Below are positions 2,253 to 52,489 of a stretch of DNA of 64,000 nt, in pieces. The notes beneath the pieces are model-generated. The model was given only the letters and a program-made list of their open reading frames with translations. It ran no database searches and was not told the DNA's origin. How positions within the stretch are numbered: position 1 is the stretch's first letter; each line of letters begins with the position of its first letter. Made by a program: the position numbers and the translations under genes. Origin of the DNA: Isurus oxyrinchus (lineage: Eukaryota); the NCBI GenBank assembly GCA_026770705.1, contig JANJGN010000021.1, positions 91,078,001 through 91,142,000 on the forward strand, in the 5' to 3' direction.

Positions 2253-2285
2253 AATTGAACAGAATAAAGCGATCCCCAAATGAAG
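2253..2285 (+). CDS. Microexon 1 (33 nt, phase 1-1) of coiled-coil microexon gene: (E)LNRIKRSPNE
   Basis: atttttttacag|AATTGAAC...AATGAAG|gtgaca; open frame; resembles the next exon (R-x-K-R-x-x-(x)-N). Confidence 0.7.
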
Positions 2286-3507
2286 GTGACAGAAGTATGC
2301 TGTGGAATTAAAATAAGAGATCTGTGGAGATGAACGATAATGTTTTCACAGTTCGGCGAGAATCATAGAACCAGACAGGGAAATTACCCATTGGGCAGAT
2401 TGTGATGTGTTGCCTTTTAACGAGCTATACAAATAAGCATACTCCTCTGCCCTTTCTCCATAACTTTACAAACGCTGTGATGTTAAGCTTCGCTATAGGA
2501 GTTAATTGGGAGGTCTGAGAAGATTTTGTATTTTGACGAAGATTTCTCCCAAATCAGTCACGACCGCGGATTTCCTACGAAGATAGTTGCAAATAATTCC
2601 AGACAGGATTTCGAATTTGATGGTTTTGACAAAATCTGTCAATGAACAGTACCAGCTTTCTGATTGTTGTGATCAAATTTCAATTAGAGGATGATGAAAA
2701 GTAAGCGTCCGCAGCACTATTTTCAACTCATTTGTTTAACTTGTCAGATATTCAGACAGGCTCACTTACAGACATGTGCTCCTCCCTCGTATATATTTAT
2801 TTCCTATGGCCAGGCATCCAATTGTCCTACATGCAGGAATAGGACATTCTGAGTATTTAGCTATTCATCCATTCTGTCCTTAGCAAATGTCCGTTCTTTT
2901 ACACGGGCTCCTGTAAAGGCCTATATTGACAGCACTTAAAAGATAATTCATTGGCTCTGATTTTTGACATATCTGTAGGATTGAAGAGCACCCGATACTC
3001 TATCTTGTTAAACACCGCCCAATTTTATTTCCCTGGGGCCTCCAAAGTTCTGACACACAAAGTCAAACTGAAGCCAATGAAGAGCAACATCAGGAATTGG
3101 GTTTCACGAGTGGCCTGTCTGATACCACTGGCTTTACACTATACGCAAGGGTTAACAGTAAACCTGCTTACAGCACATCAAAGAGAACAACCTTTAAAAA
3201 ATGATAGTTTTATCTAAATGACAAAAATCTAGTTATAAATGAACCAAACTTGATCTACAAATCTATAAAACAATAAATGATATAAAATGATCCTAAAACT
3301 CCGCCGAGCTACCACGGCATGTACACCAACTGCAACTCAAGTTGGGAGAGGAGCTGAAATCCTTAAGAAACAGCGCTGACGACCGTTCATGCTATGCTTG
3401 CAAAACTGACGTGGTATATCGGACAAACCCTAACAGCGTTTCTCAGTCAGCACTGCAAGTAGTCAAATACATTAAATTAAGGTATGCTTTTCTCCTTTTC
3501 TTTCTAG

Positions 3508-3543
3508 AAAACGTAAGATTAAAGAGAGCAGCACCAAACAGCG
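3508..3543 (+). CDS. Microexon 2 (36 nt): ENVRLKRAAPNS
   Basis: cttttctccttttctttctag|AAAACG...AACAGCG|gtgagg; strong pyrimidine tract and donor. Confidence 0.8.
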
Positions 3544-3809
3544 GTGAGGAACTGCTTTCCTTTTTATTTGTGTTTGGTGGAAATTTGGCTTGGCGGTCTG
3601 GCACGAATTGAAAGGCTGTATGTAGCATATTGCATACCATCGTGCTTGCTACTTTGGATGACATGCGTGCCCTCTGAATGAGACATATTTGTGATCAAAA
3701 CAAGTGAAACAATCATCCCATAGTGTGGCGTCTAATGAAAACCCCAAAGAGCCATTTCGAGTGCACTGGCCAGTCTGTGATCCTTAAAATGATGTGTTTC
3801 AATATGTTT

Positions 3810-6066
3810 CCTTTACTCATTCACGGGATTTGGGCTTCGCAGGCTGGGCCAGCATTTATTGCCCATCCATAGTTGCCCTTGAGAAGGTGGTGGTCAGCTG
3901 CATTCTCGAATCGCTGCAGCCCATGTGGTGTGGGTGCACCCACATTGCTATTATAAATGGAGTTCCAGGATTTTGACCCAACGACAGTGAAGGAATGGCG
4001 ATCTGTTTCCAAGTTAGGGTGTTGAGTGACTTGGAGGTGAACTTCTAAGTGGTGGTGTTCCCATCTATCTGCTGCCCTTACCCTTCTAGACGGCAGTGGT
4101 CGTGGGTTGGAAAAGTGCTACCCAAGGAGCCTTGGTGAATTCCTGCAGTGCATCTTGTAGATGGTACACACTGCTGCTACTGTGCATCGGTGGTGCGGAG
4201 AGTGAATGTTTGTAGATGTGGTGCCAATCAAGCATGCCGTTTTGTCCTGGACAGTGTCAAACTTCTTGATTGATGTGGCAGCTGCACTCATCTAGGCAAG
4301 TGGAGGGATCCCATCACACTCCTGACTCCTGCCTTGAAGATGATGGACAGATTTTGTGGAGTCAGGAGGTGAGTAACTCATCGCAGAATTCCTAGCCTCT
4401 GATTTGCTCCTTCACCACAATGTTTTTGTATCTAGCCCAGTTCAGTTTCAGGTCAGTTTTAACGCCTAGGATGTTGATACTGGGAGTCTAAATGTTCGTA
4501 ATGTCATTGGGAGTCATGGGCGATGGTTAGATTCTCTCCTGTTGGAGATGGTCATTGGCTGGCACTTGTGTGGCATGAATGTTACTTTCCACTTGTCAGC
4601 CCAAGCCTAGATATTGCCCAGGCCTTGCTTCATTTAGCTATGGGCTACTTCAGCATCTGAGGAGTCGTGAATGGTGACATTGTGCAATCATCAGCGAACA
4701 TCCCCACCTCTGACTTTGTGATCGAAGGAACGTCATTGGTGAAGCAGCTCAGGTGGTTGGGCCTAGGACACCACCTTGAGGAGCTCCTGCAGTGATGGCC
4801 TAGAGCTGAGCCGACTAACCTGCAACAACCACAATCATCTTCCTTTGTGATTTTCATCACTACAACAGGTATGCCTGGTGCTCTTCCTGACATGCCCTCC
4901 TGCACTCGTCATTGAACCAGGGTTGATCACTTGGCTTGATGGTAATGGTAGGGTTCGGGGTAAGCCGGGCCTGGAGGTTACAGATTGTGTCTGTCTACCA
5001 TTCTGTTGCTGCTGCAGGCCCACAGCGCCTCGTGGATGCCCAACCTTGAGCAGCTAGATCTGTTTGAAATCTATCCCATTTAGCATGGTGGTAGGGCCAC
5101 ACAATACGACGGTATCCTTAATGTTAAGGCGGGACTTCGTCCCCACAATGACTGTGTGGTCGTCACTCCAACTGACACTGTCATGGTCAGATGCATCTGT
5201 GGCAGGCAGGTTGGTAAGGATAAGGGCAAGTATGCTTCTCCCTCGTGTCCCTTCCCTTTCCACTCGCTGCAGTCCCAGTCTAGCAGTTATACACTTTAGG
5301 ACTCGGTCAGTTCTGTCAGTAATGGTGCTACCGAGTCACTCTTGATGATGAGCATCGAGGTTCCCCACCCAGAGTACATTCTGTGTCATTGTTACCTTCA
5401 GTTCTTCTTCAGGGTAATGTTCAACATGGAGAAGCACTGATTCACCAGCTGAGGGAGCGCAGTACAAGGTAATCAGGTTTCCTGTTCATATTTGACCTGA
5501 TGCCATGAGACTTCATGGGGTCTGGAGTTGGGCTTTAGGACTCCCAGGAGCACTCCTGCCCGAATGTACACGACTGTGCCGCCACTCTGCTGGGTCTGTC
5601 CTGTCAGTGAGACAGAACATCCCAAGGACGGTGATGTCTGCGACATATGATTCCATGGGGCTGTCTATGTCAGGCTGGTGCTTGACTGGTCTGTGAGAAT
5701 TTTGGCACAAGAGGACTTTGCAGGAATGACAACGCTGAGTTTGCCGTTGTCAATGCCGGGTGGTCCGTCCGGTTTCATTCCTTGTTTGAGTCTTTGTAGC
5801 GGTTTGATACAACTGAGTAGCTTGCTCCGGCATTTCAGAGTGCATTTAGTCGTGGTCAACCACATTTATGTGGGTCTGGAGCCACATTTAGGCCTTACCA
5901 GATAAGGACGACAGATTTCCTTCCCTAAAGGGCACTAGTGAACTGGATGGTTTTCATCATTTGACTTTTAATTCCATCTGCCATTGCACGATTCAAACCC
6001 GGTCCCCAGACCCTGAGTCTTTGGATTACTTGTCCAGCGACAATACCACTAATTCATCGCTTCCCC
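3810..6066 (-). mobile_element. Degenerate non-LTR retrotransposon (CR1/L2-group LINE), internally deleted, with tRNA-like 5' head
   Basis: Minus-strand fragments NDVPSITKSEVGMFADDCT (reverse transcriptase) and TRGRSILALILTNLP...SDDHTVIV (apurinic-type endonuclease); 3' tail shared with 34360, 42520 and 44900. Confidence 0.85.
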
Positions 6067-6189
6067 CCTGTTTGCTTCCATTGTGCTTGTATTCAATCAC
6101 ATTTACCTCCAAACAGCGAGTAAGAATAGGGAAGCTGTCAAATTCCATTCCTGTTGAACAAATGGTTACAGAAATTATCTTAACCTTTT

Positions 6190-7720
6190 AGAACCATAGA
6201 ATCATGAGAAGGCCGCAGCACAGATGTGGAGTCCTTGCTGCCTCTATGCAGCTGGGCTCCACTCTCTTGCCCTTTCCCCATCGTCCTGAAAGGTCTTTTT
6301 TCCTTCTCTTCAGGTTCTTGCCCAATTTCCTTTTCAAAGCCTGGATTTTATCTCTCTCTACCATATCCTCAGCGAGTGTATTCCAAATCAGTGCCTAGCA
6401 TAATCAGATTTTCTCGTGTTGCTGTTGGATTCTCTTTTGCCAGTAACCTTAAATCAGCATCCCCTAGTTCTTAGTCCTACCGCTATTTTCAACAGTTTCT
6501 CTCTATCCACTCTGTCTGCACTCCTCATGCTTATGAAGACTATAATCAAATCTACTCTCGATCTTCTCTGGGAGATCAACGCCAGCGTCTCCATTCGATA
6601 CATATGCCTCAGTCTGGAATAAGACATGTAAAACCTGTCTGCGTGCGCTACATAATATTCATATCCTGTCTACCGTGTGCTGTCCAGAGCTAGATGCAAT
6701 ACTCCGGCTGAGGAAGTTAAGAGAACTTATAATGATTCATCTACATTTATTACTTTTGTGCTCTATTCCTCTGTTTCAATGCCGAGTATGCCATATGATA
6801 TTTTAGCCATTTAGCCACTTTCTCAAACTCTCCTACCAAATTCAAAAGCTGTTCTTCATGCCATTAATAATCGTACCCCTTATTGTCCATTCCATCTCTT
6901 CGGAATAAATGCAGGACTTCAGAATATTCCACGTGAAATTTCATTTGCCACGCGTCCGCCCTTTCCACACACCTATCCATATCCTCCTGAACATGACCAC
7001 GATCCTCCTCAGAGTTCACAATACTTCCAGATTTTGTGTCATCTGAAATTTCTTTCAAATGGTGCTTGCTGCACCAATCTGGTTATTAAGCAATAAATTA
7101 AGAAAAACAAGGATCCTAATATGAACCCCCAAGGAACCCGACTGTATCCTTTCTCTCATTCCGAAAATCAAGCATTCATCACTACTCTCTGTTTCCTGTC
7201 ACTGAGGCAACATGGTATTCATGTTGCTAGTTTCTCTTCTTTCTATGGACTTCAACATTGCAAACATATTTTGTGGCACTTTAACAAAGGCCTTTACGAC
7301 ATCAGCTTCATCCTCGTCAACCATCTCTGCTACTTCATCCGAAAAACGCAATCAAATTAGTTAAACAGGACTTGCCTTTAACAGATCCAGACATTTTTCC
7401 CCTTCTCTTGGTTCATAACTCCAAAATGGATGTTAATTTAGTCGCAGATTATCATTGATAACAGCATTTCCACCACGGAGATTAACTGACTGACTTGGAG
7501 TTGTGTGCTTTATCCATACACGTAATTTTTAACAAATATGTAGCATTTGCAATGCTATACTCCTCTGATCTAAAACTTGTGTGTAAGGAGGATTGCAAGA
7601 TTATGGCCAATGTCTCTTCAATTTCCACCATATTTCCCTCAGCATCCTAGGTTGCATCGCATCTTGCCGTGGTAAATTTTCAACTTTAAATGCAGCCAGT
7701 CTTTCTAATTTCTCGAGGTT
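6190..7720 (-). mobile_element. Degenerate CR1 LINE, 3' part of ORF2
   Basis: ORF fragment DDTKSGSIVNSEEDRGHVQEDMDRCVERADAWQMKFHVEYSEVLH matches the CR1 RT C-terminal region. Confidence 0.85.
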
Positions 7721-8189
7721 ATTAATCAGCATTTTTTATTTCTCATGGGAATTGTGCCAATGATTCCAGATTTCAAAATTAGTTATTTCATTTGCTATGG
7801 CAAGTAAATTTGCTTTTGCACCAAACCGCTTGGCTATTTTAGCCCCCGTAATATCACAGAACTTTTCAAATTTTCGTTTGCCAGTTTATGGCTTCTTTGG
7901 TTTCAAATTGATCCTTCCAACAGTTGTTTTCTTTTAAACCATAAATTACTTGACTTGCAATTATTGAAGCTTTGTCCCACCTTAGATAACTTTCTATCTT
8001 ATTCCGTAATAATTCACGTCAGTATTGTATGTGAAGATGAAATTAGTGGTATGCACCTGCGCCGGCAATTGGCGCCTTAAATCATTCCATAAGGCATGCA
8101 CCACCAAAATGCTCTATCTAAATATTTTAACTTCATGCTCGTGCTTTACACTGTCACCACATTTTTTTTTTGATCATCTAGACCAGAGT

Positions 8190-11100
8190 ACAACCATATC
8201 AGCGGGCAGAGAAAAGAGCGGTGGTAGAAAAACATGGAGAGTGAGAACACAGGGAGACCAGCAGAGAGATAAAAGAGGGAGAAGTGTTTGTTTTCAGAGC
8301 CCATTGATCGTGTTTGGGAGCAAATCTAAGTGTGACATCACAGGTATGTGGGTGATTAGTGAGTAGTCTTCTCTTCTCTCTCTCTAAACTCGAACCTGGG
8401 AAATTAAAAATTTCAGTCGTGTAAGTTTAACAGGAAGTGAATGATCAAGAACAGGTTGATAGGCATTCATTAAACTTAATAGTTTTAACAAGGTGCAAGC
8501 TAGATTGTTCAAGAGAATATAGAAACATTTTTTAAGATCATGGGACGGCAGCTGGGACCTGTTGCTTACAATTCCTGGACACATCACGTGTCCTTCCAGC
8601 TGCTTCAGCTCGACCTCAGGATTTCCAACTTGAGGGGCAGCTAAACTCTTCGTGGAGCATGAGTGTTTCCCAGGCCGTACGTTCCAGATTTTGACCACCC
8701 CACAGGCAGAAAGAGCTAAGGATAGAAGATGAGCTGTCGTCAGGAACAATAGAAAGAGGCGGGAAATTAATGAGCCTTCAAGGCGTGTGTCATTCTTAAT
8801 CTGGTGCACAACATTGCAGAATTCTGGGAATGACGGCAGATTGAATCAGTGCAGTTTAGACCATGACGGATGCGGAAAGCAGAGAACTGGAAAGAGTAGA
8901 AATGCAGCTATTACGGGAAGTTCCAAAGTCAGGAGAACAGACGGTCAGTTATTTATCCATCATCGTAAGTTCCGTGTAGTGTGTTGCCACAATCGTTTCA
9001 GAGTAAAGGAAATCACGGAGAAGGGGCAGAATGTTTTCTAGGCGAAAGGAAGACAGCCATAAACTGTTGTGTACTTCGTGCCAACTGCAAGGCGAGGGCA
9101 GGTATTGAAGTCCTACAGTCAGACTTTCAGGAACCAGAGAAAACGTTTTTAAAAAGTAGTCCCACAAGGTAGTAATTTCTTGCTTACTCCTAGTTCCAAG
9201 AATTAGCTGCGTGGAAATCAAAAGATCGGGAGGATCAATCAATTGCTTGAGACATATTGCAAGAGGCTCTCGAAACATTGGTACAAGCCCTGGGGTAGGA
9301 GGCATCTATTCAAGAGAGATGGCGTTCTCCTTAATGGAACTATGACTAATGCTCCCGCACGAAGGTTTACTGCTGTGTTTGGGGTTGCGTGGGATGGGGT
9401 TTAATTAATAAACACGGGAAGCGGGTCAGCATATAGAAGTAGAAAATGTGAATAAGCATAAAGTGAGAATGTTGGACGTTACTAGAGAAGGAAGTACCTC
9501 CAAATTCGGAGTGATCTAAGGAGGGCTGCGAGGAATAAAAAGGCAGGTTTATAAATGCATTTGAGCAAAGTGTGATGAACGAAGTTAATGAGCTACAAGC
9601 ACCATGATCTATTTCACAGGTAGGTAGGTCCTGAATCCACCCCAGTAAGAGTGGGGATCGAAACCCATGCAGTTGGTACGAACTTAATCTACACTTGTCG
9701 TTCAGCCAACTGTGCTAACCAGTCCCCAAGGAGCCCAAGCTGCTGTGGCAACATATAGTTTTATATGTATGTGGTAGCCTGGAGCCATGGGTAGTGATGG
9801 TAGAGGCCCCAATGTCCTTCCCATCATCAGCGAGGCATCCCTCTTACCTCTTCCAGGTGTTGGAAGGGTTTACAAGTTTAGCCATGTTATTAACGCACCT
9901 TCTTTGGCCATCAAGCACTGGAGTTGACCTTGAAATTGGAGCATCGAGAAATGAAGCCTGGATTACAACTGCGCCACAAGACCTCTGTAGGGGGCATTTA
10001 ATAGTCCTCTAAATAATTAGAGGAGCGAATTTGCAAGCAAATCAGGGAGATATGCAAGAATTATAGAATGATGATTTTTGGGGTCAAATGCAATATGTTC
10101 TGATGGGAAGTGAGGAACATATTAAGAATGGCAAAGAGAGAGCAGGACAATAGAATCACAGCCCACATAAAAGGCAATTGAAAAGTCTATTCTACCGACA
10201 TGCAACTAGTAAGCACGTAATAAGAGGTGGAGTGGGTGGTCCTACAAAGAGAATATTATATGCTTAGAAGCGCAGGGTGAGTCAAGTATACTTAATAAAC
10301 TCTGTGTATTGGTGTTTACTAAAGAAGAGGAATCAGAAGGAAGCAGAAATGGTAAAGGCAAAGGGCGTGGTGAGAACAGAGAAGCAAAAGGTACTGGAAA
10401 TGCCTGTGCCTGAAATGGATAAGTTGCCAGATTCAATGGTTTTTACACGAAGTCGTTAAAGGAAGCGTGGAAGGAGATAACATACGGCTTTCAACCCTTC
10501 CTAGAGGATTGGAAAGTGGAAAAGGTGACACTGTTATAACGAAAGGTTGTGAGCACAGCTGTAGCAACTGTAAGCCAGTTAGTTTAACATCAGACTTGAC
10601 AATAATCAGGGGGAAAATCGACAGGAACTTTCAGAGTTTAAAGTTAATTTAGGATAGCGGGAACTGATGTGTAAAAGACAGATCATTCTTTACCAATCCA
10701 ATTGAATATTTTAGCGACGTAACAGATAAGGCTGATAAAATTATTGTAAATGATGTAGTCTGTATGGATTTTATTAAAGCGTCTGACAAAGTGTTATTGT
10801 AAAAGATTATTTAACAAAATTGTGTCTCATGGAATAGGAGGGTCAGTGTTAAATTGTATAAAGGTATTCAATTAAGGGCAGCAAACAATCGTTGAAGGTA
10901 AATGTATTGGAATACAGAGAAAATTTTCAAAATTTTAAGAATATACCAAACTTGGAAGAGTGGCAAACAGGGATGATGATAGTAATCGACTGCAATAGAA
11001 TATAAATGGACAGCGGAGTGACAGGTGGAGTTTAATATATGTGACTTGATGCATTCCTGCAGAAGAGATAGTGAGAGGCAACATGACTTAATGGCACTGT

Positions 11101-12120
11101 TCAAAATAATACGTGGAGAGAGGGGCCTGAGGTAAAATGTGCATGGATTTTTGAAGGTGGGAATATATTGAGGGAGTGCTAATCAAAGCATATGGGATCG
11201 TTGGCTTCACAAATGCATGCATTCGTGGACCCGTCTAGTGATTGAAGAGGCAACGGAAGCACCAGGGCAGCTATTTCCTGTAGCACCATTTGGAAACTCC
11301 AGTTACGCAGTCCACTCACTACTATCGGCGTTCCAGGCTAAAACCCGACCAATTCCCTGCTAGATTTCTTGGTACAGTCTAGATATTCTACATTTGAGAG
11401 CTTACGGTCAATTAGCAGCTGAGAGCTCTCCAGTGGCAAGTGACCTTTGACCTTTCCCGTTCTGGCCTCAGTTCGGTGAGTGGGGAAGTTGAATGAGTCT
11501 CTACCCATGCTTGCCTGCCTCCTAGCCTGAATAAAGTGAAAAAATTAAATTCTACCCCTTGAGCACAAAAACAGGGAACTAGCAATGAACATTTACAAGG
11601 CTTTGGTTAGCCTCAAACTACAGCATGGCATCCAGTTCGGTTAGTATACTTAAGGAAGGATATAAGATTAACAAGAATGGTTCCAGGAATGCGTGGGTTT
11701 AGCTACAAGATGTGCTTCGGGGCACTGGTGTTGTTCTCCTTAGAAAAAAGCTAATTGAGAGAAGATTTTATAGTGGTGTACAAGGTTATGATGGATTTGG
11801 ACAGGTAAACAAGGAAAGCAATTGTTCCCATTAGCGGATGGCACAAGGGCGAGTGATCATAGATTTAAGAACGTGGACATGAGACAAAAGGAAGATGTGA
11901 GGAAGAAGTTTATTGTTATGCAGCGAGTGATAATGACCGGGAGTTCTCTGCCCGCAACAGTAATGGAAATGGACTCATTCAATGATTTCAAAAGGAAACT
12001 GTATGGGCATTTGAAGGACATCAAAATGCAGGCTGCATAGATAAAGTGAGGGAATGAGGATGAAGAGCCGGCATAGACTCAATGAGCCAAATGTACACCT
12101 TCTGTTACGAAATGAGTAAT
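8190..12120 (+). mobile_element. Long decayed CR1 LINE (5' UTR, ORF1 remnants, ORF2 remnants, 3' end) with nested SINE fragments near 9640-9990
   Basis: NCKPVSLTS motif, an MDF.KA.DKV-like stretch near 10765, and FPLADGTRASDHRFK...VMEMDSFNDFKRKL at the CR1 C-terminus. Confidence 0.8.
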
Positions 12121-12762
12121 TAACTCGCCAACTCTGCTTAAAGTTGAAGAATATTAAAAATCTGTCTATCACTCTCCTTTAATTTAGAAGTTGAAAAATA
12201 TCGAAAACAACTCGGTAAAGTATCAGCTTGACAATCAGTATTTTATTTTTTGGTGACAAGGCTTCTTTCGGGTTACATTGTAAAGATTGAGTTTGTAGGC
12301 TGTAAGCAGAATGCCTTCACAACCTGCAATGTTTCTCACACAGCTGGTGGCCTTCCCAATTATCACTTCCTTTGTAGAAGGCCTGCCACTGTGTGTGCAT
12401 CAGAAAGTTCCTATAATTAGCAGCTGTGCTATTATTCTAGCTGATAGTAATAACATGTGATAATTCAAATCAATAAACACGAAACGTTTTACGTGTGGAC
12501 AGTGAATAATTTGAGACAATTTTAACGTCACTCTATCCTGATCAATGGGAACAATGGAACATTATTATACATCACGTTTATTGTCCTTTCCGCTGCAGTC
12601 CTTGATGCTGAAAATTGCTTATAAACATTGCGGGGTATTCAACATGTCCAGTTTCATAGCATCACACAAAGCTAAAATTACCCATTAACATGCAAGATTA
12701 ACAGAATAATTTGTGATTTCGAGTTATCACATTGCAATCTCCATTTATTTTTCGTTTATCAG

Positions 12763-12786
12763 TGGAGAAGATGAAACAAGTGAAAG
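12763..12786 (+). CDS. Microexon 3 (24 nt): VEKMKQVK
   Basis: tttatttttcgtttatcag|TGGAGAAG...GTGAAAG|gtaaca. Confidence 0.8.
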
Positions 12787-13399
12787 GTAACATACCTTGA
12801 ATATTTACATGTATCACAATATTTACTTGTATCTTGCTGTTTAATGTTAAAGGAATTTGAGTGACTTTGATTTAAAAGGCAAAATGCGAATTCTGGCAAC
12901 TCCTGAAATTAACGACATGATAGAAAATCTTTGGTGCAGAAGCCGAATTGTCTTATAGTTCTGTAGCAGCCATGTCTAACAATACCACCGAATATTTATT
13001 TCCTGAAACTTTGAGTAAACTGAAGCACATTTAAACATCAGTGGAAGCTAACGTTGTCTTAATGTCTTCCGAAGATTGACAGGGAATCTAGGAAATATAT
13101 TTGTCACGTGATAGAGGCACAAAAAACACGCGGATAAGTGAAGGTGCCGATAATACTAACAATAGCGTAACACTTAGGCAGAGATCATGGTGGGGCAACA
13201 GAAAAAACTTGCCAGCATTATGACCCTATTTAAAGAGGATTGTATTTATGGCAAAATTGCGCAGTTCAGTCTGGCAATCATGAAAAGTCCCTGATGTCCG
13301 TCCTAGCTTTAGTGTGAGCAGAGTACTTTTTAACACCATCTGGTATTAAACTTTCAGGGGAAGCCTTTAGGCTCACTTTAGTATAAGGCTGGCTTCTGG

Positions 13400-41439: not shown

Positions 41440-42600
41440 GCTTCAAACCTTGGAGTTCGGCATTCTGGGTGCAATTTGTGCACATTCCTAATGGTGTTGC
41501 ATTGGGAGTCTTCAACATTGATCCCGGGCCCCATGAAGTCCCATGGAATCAGATCAAACATGTGCAAGGAAAGCTCTTGCTGATTACTCTTGATTACACC
41601 TACGTTGAAAAGTAGGTGTGCCAACGTCTTTCAACATCTTTGTGGGAAATTATGTAAGGTAACATATGATGGATAGTCTACAGCGTGTAGTCATCGAAGT
41701 AAATAGCATAATAAGAGCTCGCCAAGATTGCAACATGTTCAATCTTCATGAAAAAGAAACTATATTTGAGTTTACCAATTTTGAGTGGTTGATTTGTCAG
41801 CATTCAGCAGCAAGAAAAGGAAATACAATATGCTGCTGCTTGTGGTTTCTGTAGATTTTCGGTTTTTAAGCACATTACCTACAACATCCGGGCAGCCAGC
41901 TCAGTTTGAAGGCTCTGAAGAAGCAAAGAGCCAATCTGCCACAACTCTGCGACATTAGCTCCATAAGCTCGATCAATTCTATAAACATCCTGTGGGTTAA
42001 CATTGGCCAGAAACCGAACAACACTAGCCACATAAATGCAATGTTTATGAGAGCTAGGAATTCTACAGCGGTCAGCTCACCTCCCGACTGCCCAAAGCCT
42101 GTCCACCACCTACAAGTTACAAGTCAGAAGTATGAAGGAATACCATCCACTTGCCTGGATGAATGCAGCTCCTACAATACTCCAGAAGCTCAGCACCATC
42201 CAGGACCAAGCCACCCGCTGGATTAACACACATTCCACGAACCTTCACTCCCTTCACTGCTACCGAACAGTGGCTGCAGTGTGTACCATCCACAAGACGC
42301 AGTGCAGCAACTCACCAAGGCTTCTTAGGCAGCAGCTTCCAAACAACAACCACTAAAATCGGAAGGAAAAGGGTAACAGACACATGGGGCCAGCACCAAC
42401 TCCAAGTCACTCACAATATATCGCCGTTCCTTCACTGCCGCTGGCACTCCCTCCCTAACAACTCCATTGGTGTGTGCCTACACCTCATCGACTGCAGCAG
42501 TTCAAGAAGGCACCTACCACCACCTTCTCAAAGTCAATTCGGATGGATAATAATGCTGGCCTAGCCAGCAACGCCCACATTCCAGGAATAAACTTAAAAA
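41440..42600 (+). mobile_element. Fragments of the LINE family seen at 34360
   Basis: IDPGPHEVPWNQIKHVQGKLLLIT (endonuclease) and MKEYHPLAWMNAAPTILQKLSTIQDQATRWI (post-RT), plus the shared 3' tail. Confidence 0.8.
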
Positions 42601-43659
42601 AAACATTGGTACTACAAATGCTTCAGACTCGAATTGGAGATCCACAGACTGATTGAGCATTTGCACGATGCAGAACATTAACACCTTGAGTTCTCACAGA
42701 ACACTCGGACATCTGGGAGCTTCCCGCTTATCTGCACCAATCTGTAAGTTCAACGGAGGCTGACAATGTAGCATCGAGAGGTGCAGCGCTCGGCAGTACT
42801 CAAATAGCAATTTTAAGTTACGGGGCCAGTGGATCATTTACAAAATAGAACCGCCTGTTGCTTTGGATAGTGTCAGAGAAGTTTGGTCACATGCCAGAAT
42901 TAAAAGGCTAGAGGAGGCTTAGGGTGGACGGGAAAGGGTATTGCAGCCTTTACAATGCTTTATGGCATTGTTATGCATTGGTGCCAAGGTACCGCTTCGT
43001 GGGCCAGCCTGGAAAAGCAGGCGAAGTGGACAACAGCACCACATAGATGCAAAAAAATAAGAACAGGGTGTGGCGAGCCGAGGTCGTGTAGCCAGTTAGA
43101 TCTATGGCACCTTTAAGCCTCAGTGCTGGAAAAGCAGGAATGCTTATTCCCAATTCATAAAACACAGGAAGTCCAGGGAACATAGGCGAAATGTTTATAA
43201 AATATCCATGTCTCAACTGTAAGGCAGCAGAAATCCTTTCTGAATTTTAGCTGTTCAAGCAGCGAAAAGAATTATGGTTTACTGATGTGGCAGTGTTGGA
43301 AAAGGAGAAGCAAGATGCCAAGATAAATTCGGAATAGGTAATGAAGGATTTCACAGATTGAACACGCCTGGGCTGTCATAAGAGTAACAAAAGGCTCCTT
43401 ATAAGATTTGGTCCACCTTAGCAGACCAACTAGAGTCAAACACAACTTTCGAATTCACCGCCTCGAAGTCATGTCCTTCAGACAACTGCCAAAGGGATCT
43501 ATAGATCATTTTGTTTGTCCGTATAAAGAAAAAGGTAGAGACCGTGATTTCTCTGACACAGAACTGGCTGACAGAATCACTGACTTGGTGATATCATCAA
43601 CATCCATTCAGGCCTATCAAAAATATCCTCTTGACAAGCTAAAAGGATACACTTGCAGC

Positions 43660-44295
43660 TAGCAGTTAGGAAGGCAAATGGTATGTTGGCCTTCATTAAA
43701 GGACTTGAATACAGGAGCAAATATGTCTTACTACAGCTGCACAGGGCCTTGATGAGGCAACACCTGGAGTATTGTGTGCAGTTTAGTGTCCTTACCTAAG
43801 AAATAGGGGGAGAGCAGTGAAGGTTCACCTGACTGATTCCTGGGATGGCGGGATTGTTGTATGAAAAGAGATTGGGTCGAAACGGCCTGTGTTCACTGAA
43901 GTTTAGAAGAATGAGTGGGATCCCATTGAAACAAATAAAATTCTGGCAGGGCTAGACAGACTGGAAGCAGGGACGATGTTTCATCTGGCTGGTGGCGGAG
44001 GTGCGGTCTAGAACAAGGGGTCACAGTCTCTAGATACAGGGTAGGCCATTTAGGATTGAGATGAGGAGAAAATTCTTCCCTCAGAGGATGATGAACGTGT
44101 TGAAATCTTTACCACAGAAGGCTGTGAAGGCCAAGTCATTGAATATATTTAAGATGAAAAGACACTCCTAGACTTTAAAGGCATCAAGCGTTATGGGTAA
44201 AGAGCCAGATTATGGCATTGCGAGAGAGGATCAACCATGATCATATAGAATTGCGGAGCAGGCTCAAAGGCCGAATTTCAATTTTCCATGTTTCT
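43660..44295 (+). mobile_element. CR1 3' end
   Basis: gttaggaaggcaaatggtatgttggccttcatt...cacctggagtattgtgtgcagttt...agaatgagtggga...ggctcaaaggccgaat. Confidence 0.85.
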
Positions 44296-45059
44296 ACTTT
44301 TGAAGAATTACTGACGGATCGTCCAAATGTGAGACAATCCTTGCAGGATGGTAACACCTACAAGTTTTGTGACCAACTATTGGCTCAGTAGCTATGTCAG
44401 CCAAACCCAGAAAGCCCTGCGCAAGATATGGTCTACTGCATGCATCTCTCAGTTGTTCGGCACATCAAGGCACATGCAAGGTGTGCGGCATCAACAGGCA
44501 TTGGTAAACCAGTGTAAAAAGTCCAATACAGCAGCAGTGAGCAAACTTCATGATGAAACCCAAATAAGAGATAAGCAGATGCAAGCTTCCAGCAAGAGTA
44601 GAGTGTGCCCGGAATCATGAGGAATCTATCCATGAAGCAGCCAGCAGAATTAAAGAAGTGGACGATGGCAATAACTAAAATGAAGGGCATATTGCCTCAT
44701 AAAGTTGGAAAACATGTTATAGGGGCAAAGGTTGACATTTGAGCGTGTGCCAATATCCGCCCTATTAAAACCTAAATAACAGGTGTTAACAGAAATGGAA
44801 GACATCAGCAAAACCAACAACTGCGAAGCACAGTCGTTCAACAGAAGAGGTCCATAACACTGGAGTGCAGATATGGGCGTTACAACGGTCAGAGAGGCAG
44901 CTCGCCAGCACCTTCTCAAGGCCAAATGGGATCGGCAATAAATGCTGGCCCAGCCAGCGAAGCCCACATCCCATGAATAAATAAAGCAACTGAAAACAGC
45001 AAATTTAGCAACCGTACATTCGGTTCTTTCATTAATGTTATTAATATAGATTGTAAATA

Positions 45060-47760
45060 ATTGAGGCCATAATACCGCCCCTATGACATTCCATTAGTTA
45101 CAGCTTGCCAATATGAGAGTTCCCCAGTTTTCCCTATCTTCCTGTTGACTAACCAATCTTCTGTATATGTTCTGTAAATTATCCGCTGTGCACTGGGCTC
45201 TTACTTTGCCACCGTTGAAGAGGCATCTTATCAAATGCCTTCTGGAAATCCAAGAACATCACATCTAGAGGTTCCCTGTTACCCACCTTATTTGCTAATT
45301 CTTCAAAGAATTCTAATAACTTTCCCTTTACCAAAATCATGTCGACTCTGTGTGATTGTATTGTTATTTTCTAAATGTCCTGCTATTATCTCCTTAATAA
45401 AGGATTCTAACATTTTCTCTATGAAGGATATTAGAATAACTGGCCAAGAGTTTCCTGTTTCCTGCCTTCTCTGTTTCTTGACCAGAGGATCACACCTACG
45501 ATTTTCCAATCCGCTGGAACCTTTCCAGAACTTAGGGACATTGGGAGATCACAACCACTACTATCTCTGCAACCATGCTTTTTAATGCAGGATGAAGGTC
45601 CAGACGTCTTGCCAGACTTTCAGTTCTAATAGTTTTCCCACTAGTGTTTCCCTAGAGATCGTGATTGTTTTATATTCCTCTGTAGTTTACCTCCTTATTT
45701 TCAAATATATTTGAGATTTCTTTCCGCGTTCTACGTGAGAACAGTCACAACATGCCTGTTTAATGCTTCAACCATTCCTTTGTTTTCCATTATTCATTCC
45801 AGTCTCATCCTCTAAAGAGCCCAAGTTCATTTTAATTATTGATTTTCATTCTTAAATACTTGCACAGTTCTTACTATCGTTTTTTTATATATACTTGTGG
45901 CTAGCTTTCTCCCATATGCAATTTCCCCTCGTTGTTTTTTTGTCATTCTTTGCTAATCTCTAAAATCTATCCAACCTCCTGATCTACAGAAATCCTCAAA
46001 GCATTGTAAGGTGTTTTTTCTTTCAAATGCAAATTGTTCTTCAACTTCTTTGTCCGTTATGGATGGTGAATCCATTTCCTAAAGTTTTTTTCTCTCACTG
46101 GAATTCGCTGAGTGTTATTAACTATCTCCTTAAACATCTGCCACTGCATCTCTACTGATCTACCCCTCAACCTGATTGTCAAGTTCACTATAGGCAGCTC
46201 TGTATTCATATCGTTGTAATTTCATTTATTGAAGTTAAAAGCACTTGCCTTAGACCACGTTTCACTCTCTCAAACTTAGACTGAAATTTAATAATGTTAT
46301 GATCACTGCTACCTACTGGCTCATTTACTATGAGGTCATTAATTATTCCTGTCCCGTTACACATTACCAGGCTAAGAATATACTGCTCCCTCGCTGGGTA
46401 TAGAACATATTTCTCTAAGAAATTGTACCGGATACACTCTATGAATTCAACTTCGAAGGGACCTTTGCCAATATGGTTCATACAACCTTAATGTAAATTG
46501 AAATTACCCATATTTATTGCAGTATCTCTCTTCCAAGCCCGCGTTATTTCTTCTTATATACTCTGTTGTACAGTGTAACTATTGCTGCCTAGCTATTAAC
46601 TAATTCCAAAAGTGATCGCTTACCTTTGCTATTTCTTATCTCTATCTAAAGCGATTCTACATTTTGAACTTCTGAACTAAGTTAATCTCTTCCTACTGTA
46701 CTAATATTATGTTTAGTTAACACAGCCGCTTCGCCGGTTTCCCACCTTCCCGTCCTTCTAAAATGTCAAGTTTCCTTGATGTTTTACTTCCTGGCCTTGG
46801 ACAATGTAAACACACGTCTTTGAAATTGCGATGAGGTCAGACATATTTGTGTTATCAAGTCATCTGCTTTGTTATGAATGTTGCACACATTCAGCCATAG
46901 CGCATTTCAAACCATATTATTGCCATTCTTACAAGTTCCAGCCTTATCTGCTGGTGCATTCTTAAGTTTGTACGCTCTATCCCTTGAGCCCTACTCTGGT
47001 TAGCGTTACCCATATCACTTCCCTGCCCTATTTCCTTGTCCTTTATCTCTCATTTGCCACATCTTCCCGCACACGCTACCTCGCCGCCTCCCCATTATTT
47101 ACTTTAAAACCCTCTCTACCGTAATAGTTTTAGGAGTCGCCAAAACATTCACCCTGCCGATCCCAAAGGCACAGCTCCTATTTCTGCAATACTGGCGTCA
47201 GTGACCCATAAATCGAAATCCATTTCTCCCACACCAATTTTGAGCCACGCATTCAACTTTCCACGCTTATTTACCTTCACCAACTCGCTCGTGTCTCCGG
47301 CAGTAATCCAGCCACTTTTTGCCCTTGTGGTTTGTTTCATAATTTCGCGCCTTGCTGCTCATAATCACTAAGTAGAACTTTCTTCCTGGTTCCTTCTATG
47401 TCGTTTGTACCCAGGTGGACCATGACAACCAGGTCCCCTCCCTCCCACTGCAAGTGCCTCCCAATCTCTGAGCAGATGCCCCGAACCCTTGCAAGGGGCA
47501 GGCAACATAACCTTTTAAACCCACTCTCTCAGCTTCAGAGAACTGTGCTCATGCCCCGACTACAGTGTCATACCACTTTAGTACTACACACCTATTTACT
47601 CACCCCACTTGAAAGGTTCCTTGTACAATGGCCAGATGCTCAATCCCTCACACTGCAGTCCCTTCTTGCGCCTATAAATGCTGCAAGAGCCTCTAATATT
47701 TTGGACAACTTCAACAGCTGATGTCTCTTCAGTTCTACGTTCTCGATCCCCATACCTGTC
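45060..47760 (-). mobile_element. Decayed CR1 LINE (ORF1-ORF2 remnants)
   Basis: PLVKKQRRQETGNSWPVILISFIEKMLESFIKEIIAGHLE; EFIECIRYNFLEKYVLYPAREQYILSLVMCN...VGSSDHNIIKF. Confidence 0.85.
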
Positions 47761-50700
47761 TCACTCTTGTCCCTGATCAAGGGGCAATACCACACTAAGC
47801 GCAACACTTCCTTCTCAGGAAGATCTGATGTTAGGCAGACAGGTGCAAATGACTCCACCCAGTCACTATCAACCCGCACTTCTAAAGATATTGGATAAAT
47901 TTCAGGAAAGACAGGGCATTATGAACGATGTTCACACAATGAGTATTTCGGGTCTGGAATGGGCTGCCTGGAAGTGTGGTGGAGGCAGGTTCAATCGAGG
48001 CATTCAAGAGGGCATTGGATGATTATCTGAATAGAATAAATGTGCAAGGGTACGGGGAAAAGGCAGTGCAATGGCACTAGGTCATAATGCTCATTTGGGG
48101 AGCCGGTGCAGACACAAAGGGCTGAATTGCCTCCCACTGTGCCGTTAAATTCTGTGATTATGTGGTGTTCATGACTTCTGTGCAGGCAAATAACTACCAA
48201 ACTTAATGGTTGGACAGAAAGTTGGTACTTTCCATCACACTGACGAAATGTGGAATCCAACCTAGGTAGCTAAAATATGTTTTGAGCCAAGATAAAATGA
48301 GGTTCTCCACAACAAATGTGATGCCGTTGAGTCGAATCAATGTCAAATCAGGGAAGCTCCTAGCCATGAAACAACAAGAAATCTCATTGCAAGCAGAGCA
48401 ATGTCAAAGAAAAGATCTAAGCATAACACTCCTACAGTTCGTTATTGTAACAATCAGCAGTCCCAAACTAAATAGACTAGACAAGCTGAGGCGTGTCAGC
48501 AGACAGCCAGTACGTTTTATAGACTCATAAGCTCACAAACATAGAAAGTTGTACATGCTTAAGGTAGAAACGTCTGTTGTTTTCTAAGTAGTTGGTGGTT
48601 GTTTATTGATACGGGGTAATTTTAGCCAGAAAAAAAATGTAGTTTGCACCTTTAAGTAGGTGTGTTATGATATCTGCACATCACTAGATAGGAAATGACG
48701 CAAGCCACCTCATGATAAGTAGTCTTCAGTATGTAGTCCGTGTTATCAAGATCTCCCCAAGATTGTACTTCTTCCTCCTGCGTTCGCTGCTTGAAGGCAG
48801 GTCTATGAATACTGACGACAAAGGCTCCAACTTTCTTTGAATCACATGGCTGACAAGGAATCTTCCCTATTGTTGCCATTTGCCATTCACATATTTTGGA
48901 AGGTTTACAGGTGATACCTCAACGTGAATGCACCTTTTTTGGCCATCAAGCCCTGGAGTGCGACTTAAGCCTGAAGGTTCAGGTACAAGTACAGCACTGA
49001 GATCTGCCTGACAATTTGGAAAATTTCCTGGGACTGCTCTGTTCGCAGAAAGCAGGGCATGTCCAGTCCGGTCAATTATCGTTTCAAGAGTTACTCTCGA
49101 TCATGATCAAACTGATGTCATGTGTCTTCGACACCAATAATCTGCTCACTGATACTGAGTTTAGGTTCCACCATGGCCACTCGGCTCCGGACCTCATCAC
49201 AACCTGGGTCAAAATATGAAAAAGGAGCTGGACTCAAGAGATGAAGCAATAGTGGCTGCCCTTAATATCAAGGCGCTATTTGATCAAGAGTGGCATCAAT
49301 GGTCATTGGCAAAACAGAAGTTAATGGGATTCAGTGAGAAAGTTCACTGTTTAGTCATATCTAGCAGAAAGGGAAATTGTTCTGGTTGTTTGAGGAGAAT
49401 CATCTTCATTCCAGAACATCGCCATAGGAATTCCACATAACAAGTCATCTTCAGATGCTACAACAATGCCCTCTCTTCCTAACAATACTGTCTGCTCCAG
49501 GTGGACTGCAGGGGTCCAAGAACGTGGGCCACTACCACCTTCTCAAACAAAAAGTCCATACCCAAGTCTCAACAAGTTATGTTAACCTATATTAAGGGTG
49601 AAAAGTGGTTGGTATTAAATACAACACACATTTCGGGCCCTATCCATTGCTGTTGCTGTCAGGGAAATCTGGTAAATGGCATAATAAACATTTCATTTAC
49701 TATTATTCGTTATTTGTACAGCAATAAGGAATAAAATGATGCCAGCTGCTTCGCACTCTCTCATTCTTTTGGAAAATATAATACACTGCAGTCTGCATAT
49801 GAAGTCTATACTCATGTCCCTTAGTTGTTTTGAGCACAAGTATCCTGAAACCTGTGCATTTTACATTCTAATTGAAGGACATTCATTCTGCCCGCTAGGT
49901 TAATGTGGCTGGGTCTGCGTAATTTCCTCCCAGTGTCCCACACTCAGTGTTGCTCTGTGTTTCTTCCGTGTCTTTTATGAGTTGGTTGGCTCCAATTCTT
50001 GCCTAAATAAGGAATCATAATGCTCTCTGTGAGGCAGGTTTACGAATGGGAGCTACCTCCATATTCTTCACCAACTTTCCATTATATGCTAAAGATAAAA
50101 ATGTCATTGCTTTTAGGATGGTTTCTGATTCAGCAATGATTAGGCATGATTGCGAAAGTGATGGACCATAAATAAGATCCCTTACAACTATGAGAATGTC
50201 CGAACCTTCTAAATGCTCTCTGTACCTTTTAACCACCAATCACGTACCAACTCGGTTTGCCAACTCAGACGTAGCACGGTTTCTGCCTCATTCCTGATTA
50301 AAATAACAATTGATACAATCCATGACACTTCTTTTTTGCTATCTGTCTGTGCCTGTTTCCTTCCCTTGGAAAAATAAAAGAAAAACGCTGATTATAAATT
50401 CGGAAGCAGATTTTACAAAGCCCTGCAGCTATTTCAGTATGAATGCTGTCAATCACAGACCATGAGGAAAGCTCTGGAATTTTCACTCAAGCACGAACAT
50501 ACTTGGCCAGAGAGTTAAGGGACAATGCAATGGGGAAGAGAGGCATGAGGTGCAAGACTGGGTAAAATGATGAATATGTATTATAGCTGCTTTCCTCGCT
50601 TCACTGAACTGAGCGTCGGTGATATCTACCTTTATTATTGCTTCAAGGTTCACTTGGGCAACTTCTCCTGCCGCATGATATGACCATCATTAGAGACTGT

Positions 50701-51431
50701 AGCTATTAAGAACAGAATAAGAATAAGAATAGAAGATAATGCTGATAATACAACTATAAGAAGTCTTTAAAATTAGGAAAGTTCCTTTCGAGTGGGCATG
50801 AAGAAACTGTTACAGCGATGGGTAAGTTTGATCAAGGGAACATAAACTAAGGTTTCAAATAATTAACATAGTAAGAATGTGTTGACGTGGAGAATGGTGA
50901 CAATGTAAAACTTGCTGACACATGCTGTCGCTGAAGCAGGTGCATGTGATAGCTTTAAGGGAGAGGGCAGTTGAGTTTCAGATGAAGGATAACAAAGTAG
51001 AACAATAGGGTCTAGTATGGTGGCTGACAATAGAGCGGGAAGAGACTGATTTGGTTGCAAACATTACGTGTGACCTATTTCTCTGTGGTATATTCCGTAT
51101 AACTGAGCGATTGTTTTGCTGTATTCACAATGTTCACAAACATTTCAATAGTTTTCATCAATATTTCTTCTTTTAAGAAAACAGGTTTTATAAACAATGC
51201 AGCTATTAGAAATATTCACGTTTAAATTGGTAGCAGTACGACAGAAAATAACATTGCTTCATATCCATGATAAGTTAAGGTAAATTCGAAACTTATTTCG
51301 GCTAGTCTTATTTATTTTGATTTTGAAATAAAGAATTTCTACACCAAGCAGTCAAATTTTCTTCATGAAAATTGTCATTAAAATAGAGTATTAATTATCA
51401 CTCACAGTTGATTCCACATTGATTTCTGCAG

Positions 51432-51455
51432 GAGGCTTTGTTGCAAAGGAGCAAG
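51432..51455 (+). CDS. Microexon 15 (24 nt): RGFVAKEQ
   Basis: cattgatttctgcag|GAGGCT...GAGCAAG|gtaaat. Confidence 0.8.
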
Positions 51456-52453
51456 GTAAATATATCACAATATATGTATGCAACCCTGTGTCAAATGTTA
51501 TTATTTCCATCTGTGGGTTTGTCAATGACACTGCCTGGACAATCAATAAACAAATGTTCGTCTATATACTCATGAAGGCGCAGAATTCAGACGCTTGCTC
51601 CACAGTGTCATCTAGAGGACTGATACCGCAGCTTCAGCATGGCAGCTGGTGTAGGTAAATTAGATGTAAAAATATTGATGTAGCAATTTTCAATGATAAA
51701 AGGTAGATGCCTCAATTTCACAAAATCTGAGGCCATAAAAATTCAGAACGGGAATCGAAATTTTGCATCAATGTAAAGTTTGGGCGATATAATTGTTTCG
51801 CTTGATATAGTTAGTGACAGACATAGTGGCCACTCCGACAATTTTCTTATCGACCATACTTTTGTTTTGCAACAAAAAGGGTTGATATGTTTAAACATCT
51901 TTTATGAATCATTTATATTATCATTGCCCTCGCCAACGCAAAGGTAGTGATCCTGAAAGTAACTGGAGCTTCGCATCGGAGCACAGAGATCCATATCTCT
52001 GCAACTTATTTGCCACATTTGCCTGTTGAAGTAGCTTGAATAGATGCCTCGTCATTACTTATCTCTCGTTTGACTGAGCCCCAAATAATTGATTTGAAAA
52101 GCTGGTTTTGTTCTTTGTTTCCACGGGAAATTACTAACTGGATATAACACTGTTCCTATCAGGGGCAAGAATAAATATCCCATGAATATATTTGGATGAT
52201 TTTCCTCAAAAAATGTGCATATTATTATACCCACTAAAGTAAAGGAATATAGTTTTCTTTACCAAATGGCTATATATTGCCGCGATTATATTGCCAGTAT
52301 TCGTTGCTAGACTGACGAGTTATGCTGTCCTGCTCGTTTTTTCTGTGAAAATATCCGATCACTAATTTGTAAAACGGAAAAGTGCTGCTTTTTAACTGCT
52401 ACATGGCAATTTTAACCCTGCTGTGGATAATTCATCTAGTGTTTCTCTTCCAG

Positions 52454-52489
52454 AATTAAACGAAACGACCAAATCTCTCAACGACTGCC
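52454..52489 (+). CDS. Microexon 16 (36 nt): ELNETTKSLNDC
   Basis: gtgtttctcttccag|AATTAA...GACTGCC|gtaagc. Confidence 0.83.

Follow-up and report, generated by a model that had tools for sequence, protein, structure and literature searches.

A row of symmetrical micro-exons in Isurus oxyrinchus lies within a 428.6-kb gene model for a coiled-coil rod ending in a B30.2 domain

A gene whose coding parts are too short to appear among open reading frames raises the question of whether it is a gene at all and, if so, to which family it belongs. A first-pass annotation of the stretch of I. oxyrinchus DNA analysed here (64,000 nt, hereafter the window) had proposed such a hidden gene, built of 16 symmetrical phase-1 micro-exons coding a coiled coil, and had suggested either a BG/butyrophilin-like tail or an unrelated secreted or type II protein.

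All 16 segments were found at the positions and lengths claimed, and each (16/16) is bordered by AG and GT on the + strand in phase 1. Joined in the frame offset by 2 nt, their 456 nt contain no stop, while the other two frames contain 14 and 8. Under a fixed filter (24, 27, 33 or 36 nt, splice scores, stop-free), the + strand of the window yielded 24 candidates, 22 of them coiled-coil-rich, and the − strand none of either kind; 60 shuffles gave 6.3±2.5 candidates (max 14) and 1.3±1.2 coiled-coil-rich ones (max 5), and two stretches of 64 kb taken from beyond the gene yielded 5 and 6 candidates with one coiled-coil-rich each. The segments had been described as unique sequence, and within the 624-kb region searched a second copy within ±20 nt was absent for all 22 candidates tested. 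Fifteen of the 16 segments match RefSeq proteins of two catsharks with exact split-codon junctions, and the sixteenth, exon 12763, is matched by the skate model only. The orthologue matches and the chance test together establish that the hidden gene is real. The earlier list lacked exons 12188 (27 nt), 56469 (24 nt) and, probably, 58602 (15 nt). Candidates 44306 (45 nt), 47819 (24 nt) and 49663 (9 nt) were excluded, being without orthologue support; those at 4090, 4921, 5206 and 34634 appeared retroelement-like by eye, and an alternative donor would bring exon 2253 to 42 nt, but the catshark model does without it. Rfam and ARAGORN returned no matches over the window. Its exons are as follows (window positions).

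2253..2285, + strand, 33 nt: linker, R-x-K-R then S-P; S. torazame match, score 41
3508..3543, + strand, 36 nt: linker bearing the second R-x-K-R motif; S. torazame match
12188..12214, + strand, 27 nt: opens the duplicated 13-exon block; not in S. torazame model; added by hand
12763..12786, + strand, 24 nt: not in S. torazame model; skate model match
19032..19058, + strand, 27-nt coiled-coil exon: orthologue match
19753..19779, + strand, 27-nt coiled-coil exon: orthologue match
20438..20461, + strand, 24-nt coiled-coil exon: its counterpart is where catshark XP_038671249.1 begins
22341..22367, + strand, 27-nt coiled-coil exon: orthologue match
25270..25296, + strand, 27-nt coiled-coil exon: orthologue match
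26979..27005, + strand, 27-nt coiled-coil exon: orthologue match
31475..31510, + strand, 36-nt coiled-coil exon: orthologue match
33682..33708, + strand, 27-nt coiled-coil exon: orthologue match
33814..33840, + strand, 27 nt: 105-nt intron before; Cys kept in catsharks and Narcine
38954..38980, + strand, 27-nt coiled-coil exon: orthologue match
39086..39112, + strand, 27 nt: 105-nt intron before; closes the duplicated block
51432..51455, + strand, 24 nt: catshark counterpart one codon longer
52454..52489, + strand, 36-nt coiled-coil exon: orthologue match, score 44
56469..56492, + strand, 24 nt: exact junction, score 12 (cut-off 15); added by hand
58602..58616, + strand, probable 15-nt exon: fills a catshark gap before the next downstream exon; added by hand, weakest in the window

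The 13-exon block from 12188 to 39086 is duplicated upstream of the window, where the partners of exons 12188 and 12763 are identical at 15 of 27 and 17 of 24 nt, respectively; the ladder thus grew by block duplication. The same two exons are missing together from the S. torazame model.

The window (1..64000, + strand) lies entirely within one gene spanning 428.6 kb, of which the 16 listed exons make up about one eighth; in window coordinates, the ladder extends from about −150 kb to +266 kb. Our model comprises 128 exons and 1,399 aa with no internal stop (a product of ~1,400 aa, of which the window supplies residues ~465–639). A 132-nt first exon is followed by ~126 micro-exons, mostly of 27, 36 and 24 nt (21 nt in 3 of 126), and a terminal B30.2/SPRY exon that ends the gene 218 kb beyond the last exon of the earlier list.

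C21:90,920,219-90,920,350, + strand: first coding exon, 132 nt, phase 1-1, YINI motif
149.9 kb to 3.0 kb before the window, + strand: upstream micro-exons
window position 65,952 to 266,259, + strand: downstream micro-exons
C21:91,348,264-91,348,784, + strand: terminal B30.2 exon with stop, SPRY E 3e-11

Of the 126 micro-exons, 16 were placed manually. Before counting, chain rows 66827 and 231772 were removed as lying beyond the homologous ends, as were rows 238216 and 166597 and the 21-nt form of −4987, which were weak or overlapping. For a catshark stretch of ~45 residues and several shorter ones, no matching exon was found here. That the chain is spliced as modelled is suggested by RefSeq models from other species; no spliced read or contig of I. 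oxyrinchus was seen. Three runs presumed to be RNA contain 0.13-0.32 of the terminal-exon words, and against the first-exon region four sequencing runs covered repeats only, a blank that is evidence neither way.

Catshark XP_038671249.1 is colinear with 76 candidate exons (425/611 residues identical), its rows lying from 22341 to 266233 bar one stray row. S. torazame XP_072329363.1 follows 63 exons (352/536 identical, 51 exact junctions) with a chain score of 1644, as against 305-342 in three shuffles, and has 22 extra, non-hydrophobic residues. The skate and Narcine models add 28-40 exact junctions each, with Narcine represented by eight isoforms of 531-597 aa. These predicted proteins show the exon chain to be conserved across sharks and rays. 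The pieces of the orthologous gene are XP_038671248.1, XP_038671249.1, XP_072329362.1, XP_072329363.1, XP_069775413.1, XP_069775420.1 and XP_055520637.1. Unlike the gene modelled here, none is of full length: the models are both split and truncated, and their names (CENP-E-like, golgin-like, EEA1-like, trichohyalin-like) reflect composition; one fragment carries the name 'zinc-binding protein A33-like'. Two bacterial-looking repeat proteins among six representative matches were discarded as compositional, and the N-terminal half, searched in the ESM Atlas, matched generic coiled coils only.

The RefSeq annotation of the catsharks and Narcine would divide this locus into two or three adjacent genes, placing the window in a coiled-coil gene that lacks B30.2. 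We found no full-length model in the databases, and the locus is represented by two separate accessions in each catshark and in Narcine. However, we consider such a division very improbable: the break points vary by species, and the ends of the split models run off the ladder into matchless sequence. Furthermore, XP_038671249.1 continues without a break from window exon 22341 into the B30.2 domain while XP_072329363.1 spans the first exon to window exon 56469, and the orthologue models, overlapping across the window, together tile one open frame.

The ~126 micro-exons encode a rod of ~1,180 residues, a segmented coiled coil with a heptad contrast of 0.408 versus 0.278 when shuffled (maximum 0.335 of 200), for which AlphaFold2 predicts long helices interrupted by linkers. 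The B30.2 domain is modelled with a pLDDT of 84 and a TM of ~0.7 to both TRIM7 and BTN3A1; its best fold matches are to TRIM7, and its best sequence match among solved structures is BTN3A1 (E 8e-23). R-x-K/R-R motifs occur just twice in the protein, in the adjacent linker exons 2253 and 3508 of the window; S. torazame keeps both and skate one, and Narcine has basic pairs. Together with the many conserved cysteines of the rod, these motifs could speak for secretion, with furin cleaving at the two linkers a proprotein whose coiled coil, of fibrinogen or angiopoietin type, carries a B30.2 recognition head. We regard this as improbable. Neither our model nor seven database proteins has a signal peptide (maximum 19-mer hydropathy 0.42-1.35), the basic motifs number 2 against 0.96 expected and the N-glycosylation sequons 5 against 4.6, and the basic pair also agrees with the consensus for kinase sites and with that for a bipartite nuclear localisation signal. 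Outside B30.2 the maximum Kyte-Doolittle 19-mer of the gene model is 0.72; with no hydrophobic segment, the suggestion of a secreted or type II protein finds no support.

The protein begins with a short, acidic tail bearing a tyrosine motif; 26 of 39 residues of the first exon are identical to the start of catshark XP_038671248.1, and three database models begin at MAA. A C-type lectin/CD72 reading of the tyrosine motif was abandoned, as no lectin exon was found and an SPRY exon was found instead. It might be asked whether the whole belongs to a type I membrane receptor of the butyrophilin/BG kind, as its giant cytoplasmic tail, with leader, Ig and transmembrane exons farther upstream or too divergent to be detected. 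The tyrosine motif would suit such a tail, the gene sits on the MHC chromosome, and the architecture of a ladder plus B30.2 is that of the shark butyrophilin discussed below. The symmetrical (phase 1-1) 132-nt exon has its frame open before the ATG and an acceptor upstream in coding phase, as have the first exons of two paralogues, and a coding exon farther upstream could therefore exist. Against this, the 82 kb upstream of the gene hold no Ig motif or Pfam match (0 of 99 upstream open frames matched Pfam), and of seven hydrophobic open frames before phase-1 donors there, none was judged by eye to be a transmembrane exon preceded by an acceptor. There is also a broken paralogous first exon, 62 kb upstream, and the database models start at MAA. 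No butyrophilin-type C2 exon lies within 4 Mb of the gene or at C21 89-91.4 Mb, such exons being confined on this chromosome to 95.6-113.9 Mb (110/110 candidates scored); a V-set search of the genome, with 150 of 3,319 candidates scored, has no bearing on IgV. As none of those exons was found in the 82 kb or the C2 scan, the tail of an Ig-plus-transmembrane receptor is unsupported, and we think it quite unlikely.

The BG/butyrophilin-tail-like option itself fared better. The shark butyrophilin at C21:107.6 Mb consists of IgC, transmembrane, twelve 27-nt phase-1 exons and B30.2, so that its architecture, in which phase-1 heptad micro-exons lead to a B30.2 exon at the end, agrees with that of the gene, as do its exon size of 27 nt and its location on the MHC chromosome (class I exons at 93.6-100.3 Mb of C21). 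The first-pass annotation had hesitated over this option for want of 21-nt exons and of B30.2; the scarcity of 21-nt exons is explained by the 27-nt tail exons of a butyrophilin in the same genome, and a B30.2 exon exists, outside the window. The gene differs in having ~126 micro-exons instead of 12, added 36- and 24-nt types, no IgV, IgC or transmembrane exon and no signal peptide found (82 kb upstream), and a B30.2 domain that falls in a separate clade and does not keep the phosphoantigen-pocket positions W350/H351/Y352 (numbered by eye). Compared exon by exon, the two ladders are not significantly similar, as great a similarity arising in 25 of 300 shuffles, and their 27-nt exons have different profiles of hydrophobic positions, while the last micro-exon of one paralogue resembles that of butyrophilin (W-K-K/R-I).

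As described in PMC5938342 and PMC8813856, chicken BG carries a signal sequence along with IgV and transmembrane exons, counts 27-37 exons of 21 nt and lacks B30.2; its tail also occurs as a soluble 'zipper protein'. On that description it shares with our gene the long micro-exon coiled-coil tail, split codons, variable exon number and MHC linkage, whereas the gene has B30.2, about four times more exons and no ectodomain. With schistosome MEG genes, whose products are secreted and hypervariable, exon symmetry is the sole feature in common, and the gene model has no signal peptide.

The B30.2 domain belongs to a clade of seven members in this genome, the gene included; four of the other six were checked and have the same micro-exon ladders. 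Five of the seven are on C34. For the paralogue at C34:6.40 Mb the N-terminus was not reached within 160 kb, and among 534 candidates there was no relative of greater length for the C34 paralogue's B30.2. In a FastTree phylogeny of 28 sequences and 170 columns, built without tetrapod butyrophilins, the family forms its own clade (support 0.999) that does not fall inside the shark butyrophilins, with the backbone unresolved. The sequence closest to the family in the tree is a teleost TRIM (0.898, a pairing of long branches), C21 bears more than 100 B30.2 matches, many not adjoining C2 exons, and TRIM7 is the best fold. An origin from a TRIM-B30.2 protein (TRIM7/21/39, 'A33-like'), which likewise joins a coiled coil to B30.2, could thus be argued: RING and B-box would have been lost and a short exon before B30.2 amplified, leaving a ligase-less cargo adaptor or decoy. 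We hold this origin to be unlikely. RING and B-box were not found in the gene or the DNA examined, nor are the 96- and ~231-nt coiled-coil exons present, and the rod is much longer. A control RING-bearing TRIM in the same genome has exons of 96/234/116 nt and no ladder, whereas butyrophilin has one (a second TRIM-like locus gave no readable exon structure within 10 kb), and the BTN3A1 match and the butyrophilin-like last micro-exon also point away from TRIM.

The explanation that we favour is that the gene encodes a cytosolic, ectodomain-less rod of the butyrophilin-tail type with a B30.2 head, its function being read from its parts; the protein would probably be tripartite, with an acidic N-tail carrying the tyrosine motif, the coiled-coil rod and the C-terminal B30.2. 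The conserved MAA methionine would be the start, and the protein would be cytosolic. Its origin may lie in a butyrophilin-type tail (27-nt ladder plus B30.2) whose ectodomain was lost or never there. A parallel coiled-coil dimer with paired B30.2 heads is envisaged, in which the rod could reach ~175 nm (1,181 residues at ~0.15 nm each) and its length would be tuned by frame-neutral exon skipping; variation in length is seen in the eight Narcine isoforms and in the S. torazame model without the 12188 and 12763 pair. By analogy, it may act as a tether or scaffold, B30.2 binding a protein or RNA ligand while the rod and tyrosine tail bind signalling or cytoskeletal partners. This proposal is modelled on the soluble 'zipper protein' of the chicken BG tail and on the mammalian enterophilins. 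The latter are cytosolic, much shorter proteins of enterocytes, made up of a leucine zipper plus B30.2; in architecture they resemble the predicted product of the gene, a soluble coiled coil with B30.2 that lacks Ig, transmembrane and RING parts. In a table of PMC13749957, an enterophilin is linked to an effect on SNX1/EGFR.

The literature searched, mainly outside subscription journals, does not describe a gene of this type. We may be dealing, though this is tentative, with an undescribed family of sharks and rays, counting at least seven genes in this genome (some on the MHC chromosome, others on a small one), that uses butyrophilin tails as free-standing giant rulers: rods of 100-175 nm, in which combinatorial skipping among more than 100 frame-neutral micro-exons would fix length and segments, could keep a B30.2 sensor, itself fast-evolving, at a defined spacing from the end that signals through tyrosine, and might be cut or regulated at the conserved basic linker of the window. 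In any case, the gene is extreme (~128 exons, of which 98% measure ≤42 nt, in 430 kb that are 1% coding) and is kept in sharks and rays, yet is split and misnamed in the annotations found. It offers a test case of micro-exon splicing at very large scale, and with a full exon map in hand RT-PCR, long-read and localisation tests are now feasible. The heptad-exon tail of butyrophilin and BG is present in cartilaginous fish, where its unit is 27 nt, and is apparently able to stand alone, which bears on the roles of BG/butyrophilin tails and of 'orphan' B30.2 domains, a question raised in PMC8813856.

A splice-site scan of the window recovered, at the lengths proposed in the first-pass annotation, all 16 of its phase-1 micro-exons, and the 2-nt-offset frame in which it had joined them held: their 456 nt contain no stop in that frame, and 14 and 8 in the other two. 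Under a fixed filter the + strand of the window yields 24 micro-exon candidates, 22 of them rich in coiled-coil residues, and the − strand none; 60 shuffles give 6.3±2.5 candidates (1.3±1.2 coiled-coil-rich), and two stretches of 64 kb taken from beyond the gene yield 5 and 6, with one coiled-coil-rich in each. The exons had also been said to lie in unique sequence, and indeed 0 of the 22 window candidates overlap sequence repeated within the 624-kb region. Beyond the original 16, further exons start at 12188 and 56469 and, on weaker support, at 58602. Three other symmetrical phase-1 candidates in unique sequence (+ strand, 44306-44350, 47819-47842 and 49663-49671) are without orthologue support, and are either species-specific alternative exons or chance.

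Within the introns, two similar stretches less than 1 kb apart with alike translations form a local duplication at 16636-17667, and a LINE reverse-transcriptase remnant lies at 35100-35474 on the − strand (RVT_1, E 1.4e-11), with others recognized by eye at about 3800-5900 (−) and 53000-56000 (+). The open frames at 32327-32938 (−) and 59500-60021 (−), which we take to resemble Penelope-type element remnants, have no Pfam match.

Like exons were found in the flanking DNA from −149,893 to +266,259, where coordinates outside 1-64,000 are G000:C21 positions (the contig of the window, C21:91,078,001-91,142,000) minus 91,078,000. The first and last exons are as follows.

Terminal exons of the gene model
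−157,781 to −157,650, upstream of the window: first exon, 132 nt, phase 1-1, carrying an ATG and an acidic segment with YINI
270,264-270,784, downstream of the window: terminal exon, 521 nt, carrying the SPRY domain

A micro-exon was considered supported when it matched a shark orthologue at a score ≥15 with an exact junction; 110 qualify (111 before one weak row was left out), and 16 more were placed manually. Including the first and last exons, the model encodes 1,399 aa without a stop across 428,565 bases, residues ~465-639 falling within the window. Micro-exon lengths in nt are 73×27, 28×36, 15×24, 3×21, 3×18, 2×15, 1×33 and 1×42, the median intron is 2.3 kb, and 125 splice borders are AG/GT and one AG/GC. 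Pairs of 27- and 36-nt exons, which together encode 21 residues or three heptads, are common, and the heptad contrast of the rod exceeds that of 200/200 shuffles. AlphaFold2 predicts, at low confidence, long helices interrupted by linkers for the catshark protein. Three database models start at MAA and a fourth has 22 additional polar residues; the 5' end of our model is provisional, because in each of the three copies of the first exon the acceptor that precedes the ATG stands in coding phase.

A search with the terminal exon returned a catshark RefSeq protein of 945 aa that shares 65% identity across the domain and in which no RING or B-box was found. Save one stray first row, this protein is colinear on 76 candidate exons from 22341 to 266233, with 425/611 residues identical and, for the most part, a single split-codon residue separating neighbouring exons. 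The S. torazame protein aligns on 63 exons that begin at −149,893 and run on across the window (352/536 identical, 51 exact junctions), its chain scoring 1644 vs 305-342 for three shuffles with 18-23 exact junctions each, and skate and electric-ray models have 28-40 exact junctions on the gene. The conservation by which the proposed exons could be judged is present in catsharks, skate and electric ray, as exact split-codon junctions. RefSeq models of this kind are usually based on RNA alignments. The break points in the gene differ between the species' annotations, which name the pieces by composition, as though they were separate adjacent genes, a reading we regard as highly improbable; since the pieces overlap across the window, they tile one reading frame.

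Thirteen window exons (12188-39086) share their length order with an upstream block at −90,834 to −54,302. The two blocks are identical at 191/354 nt vs 129 for random pairings (0/5,000 reach it), and their last three introns are similar in size. This match shows that the gene grew by block duplication and that exons 12188 and 12763 are real, though the S. torazame model lacks both.

In the terminal exon Pfam finds SPRY at E 3e-11 and no PRY; it matches the BTN3A1 B30.2 at E 8e-23, and its predicted structure is a full B30.2 sandwich (pLDDT 84; TM ~0.7 to TRIM7 and BTN3A1). The W350/H351/Y352 pocket of BTN3A1, as given in the available text of PMC7348870, is not kept, and phosphoantigen sensing is therefore unlikely. 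An intact-looking shark butyrophilin at C21:107,596,532-107,619,800 comprises IgC, a transmembrane exon, twelve 27-nt phase-1 tail exons and B30.2; a RING-bearing TRIM in this genome has 96/234/116-nt exons and no ladder. Judged on these exon structures, the architecture of our gene is butyrophilin-like, and a TRIM origin, for all the resemblance of the B30.2 to TRIM7, is unlikely. The proposal of a BG/butyrophilin-like tail accordingly stands as regards architecture, with the phase-1 ladder and B30.2. On the other side stand the tree, in which the family is not nested among butyrophilins, and the exon-level similarity between the two ladders, which is not significant. The 107.6-Mb butyrophilin itself has a BG-like extended tail with B30.2 kept, and in a second, at 109.09 Mb, candidate micro-exons are few. 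Mammalian butyrophilins combine few heptads with B30.2, and BG proteins many heptads without it, as far as described in the available parts of PMC5938342 and PMC8813856; in contrast, many heptads and a B30.2 occur together in this gene, and no ectodomain was found. On defining features that were tested it falls outside butyrophilins, BG and TRIM, yet it is built like a butyrophilin/BG tail.

C21 carries an MHC class I exon cluster from 93.6 Mb and >100 B30.2 matches. Score sets seven B30.2 exons apart, two of them on C21 and five on a second contig, C34; together with the orthologues from catshark and bamboo shark they make up a single clade (support 0.999). Of six paralogues, four were examined upstream, and all four have the same micro-exon ladders. 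One, at C34:6,237,000-6,396,300, has a ladder of >160 kb of alternating 27/36-nt exons whose start lies beyond the region covered; it shows recent internal duplications, and cysteine closes many of its 36-nt exons. From C21:90,416,484 onward, another paralogous start has an intact 132-nt exon with YINI followed by 27/36-nt exons; no B30.2 exon of its own was found among the B30.2 matches, and it may be a B30.2-less family member. A defective copy of the first exon, interrupted by an in-frame stop (C21:90,857,911-90,858,057, 220 kb before the window), resembles the start of catshark XP_038673008.1. Separately, at C21:66,132,994-66,134,184 (−), alpha-1 and alpha-2 of MHC class I are both matched within a single 845-aa open frame, where other loci have split exons; this may be a class I-like gene that lacks introns or was retroposed.

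Outside the B30.2, no 19-residue stretch exceeds a hydropathy of 0.72. The 82 kb upstream contain no Ig motif, nor any persuasive candidate for a leader or transmembrane exon; Pfam matched 0/99 open frames (93 of them in the 90 kb that precede this gene's first micro-exon, the other 6 upstream of a paralogue), and butyrophilin-type C2 exons on C21 are confined to 95.6-113.9 Mb (all 110 candidates scored). The suggested upstream inspection for signal, IgV, IgC and transmembrane exons, run over 82-90 kb, did not bear out the tail of an Ig-plus-transmembrane receptor; a receptor with an unseen ectodomain, for which the butyrophilin-like ladder might speak, is quite improbable. A processed, secreted form is about equally doubtful: it stays a candidate because window exons 2253 and 3508 hold the protein's sole two R-x-K-R motifs, which are conserved, but these show no enrichment relative to chance.

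We consider it fairly probable that the product is instead a cytosolic parallel coiled-coil dimer of up to ~175 nm, its B30.2 heads paired and its acidic tail containing a tyrosine motif, YINI, that matches the Grb2 SH2 consensus pY-x-N. Such a protein would serve as a tether or scaffold, its rod length tuned through exon skipping; Narcine has eight isoforms of 531-597 aa. Precedents are enterophilin-1, which is reported to bind SNX1 (PMC13749957, in part), and a soluble BG-tail zipper protein that displaces tropomyosin (PMC5938342).

The gene is real, and its type is, as far as we found in the literature, not described; a survey listing butyrophilins in cartilaginous fish has no form like it in the text available (PMC12841164). 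For chordate clusters of 1,277, 1,579 and 1,802 aa, the ESM Atlas lists SPRY/PRY (scores 0.93, 0.91 and 0.76) but no RING family, and on this basis other vertebrates may share the architecture.
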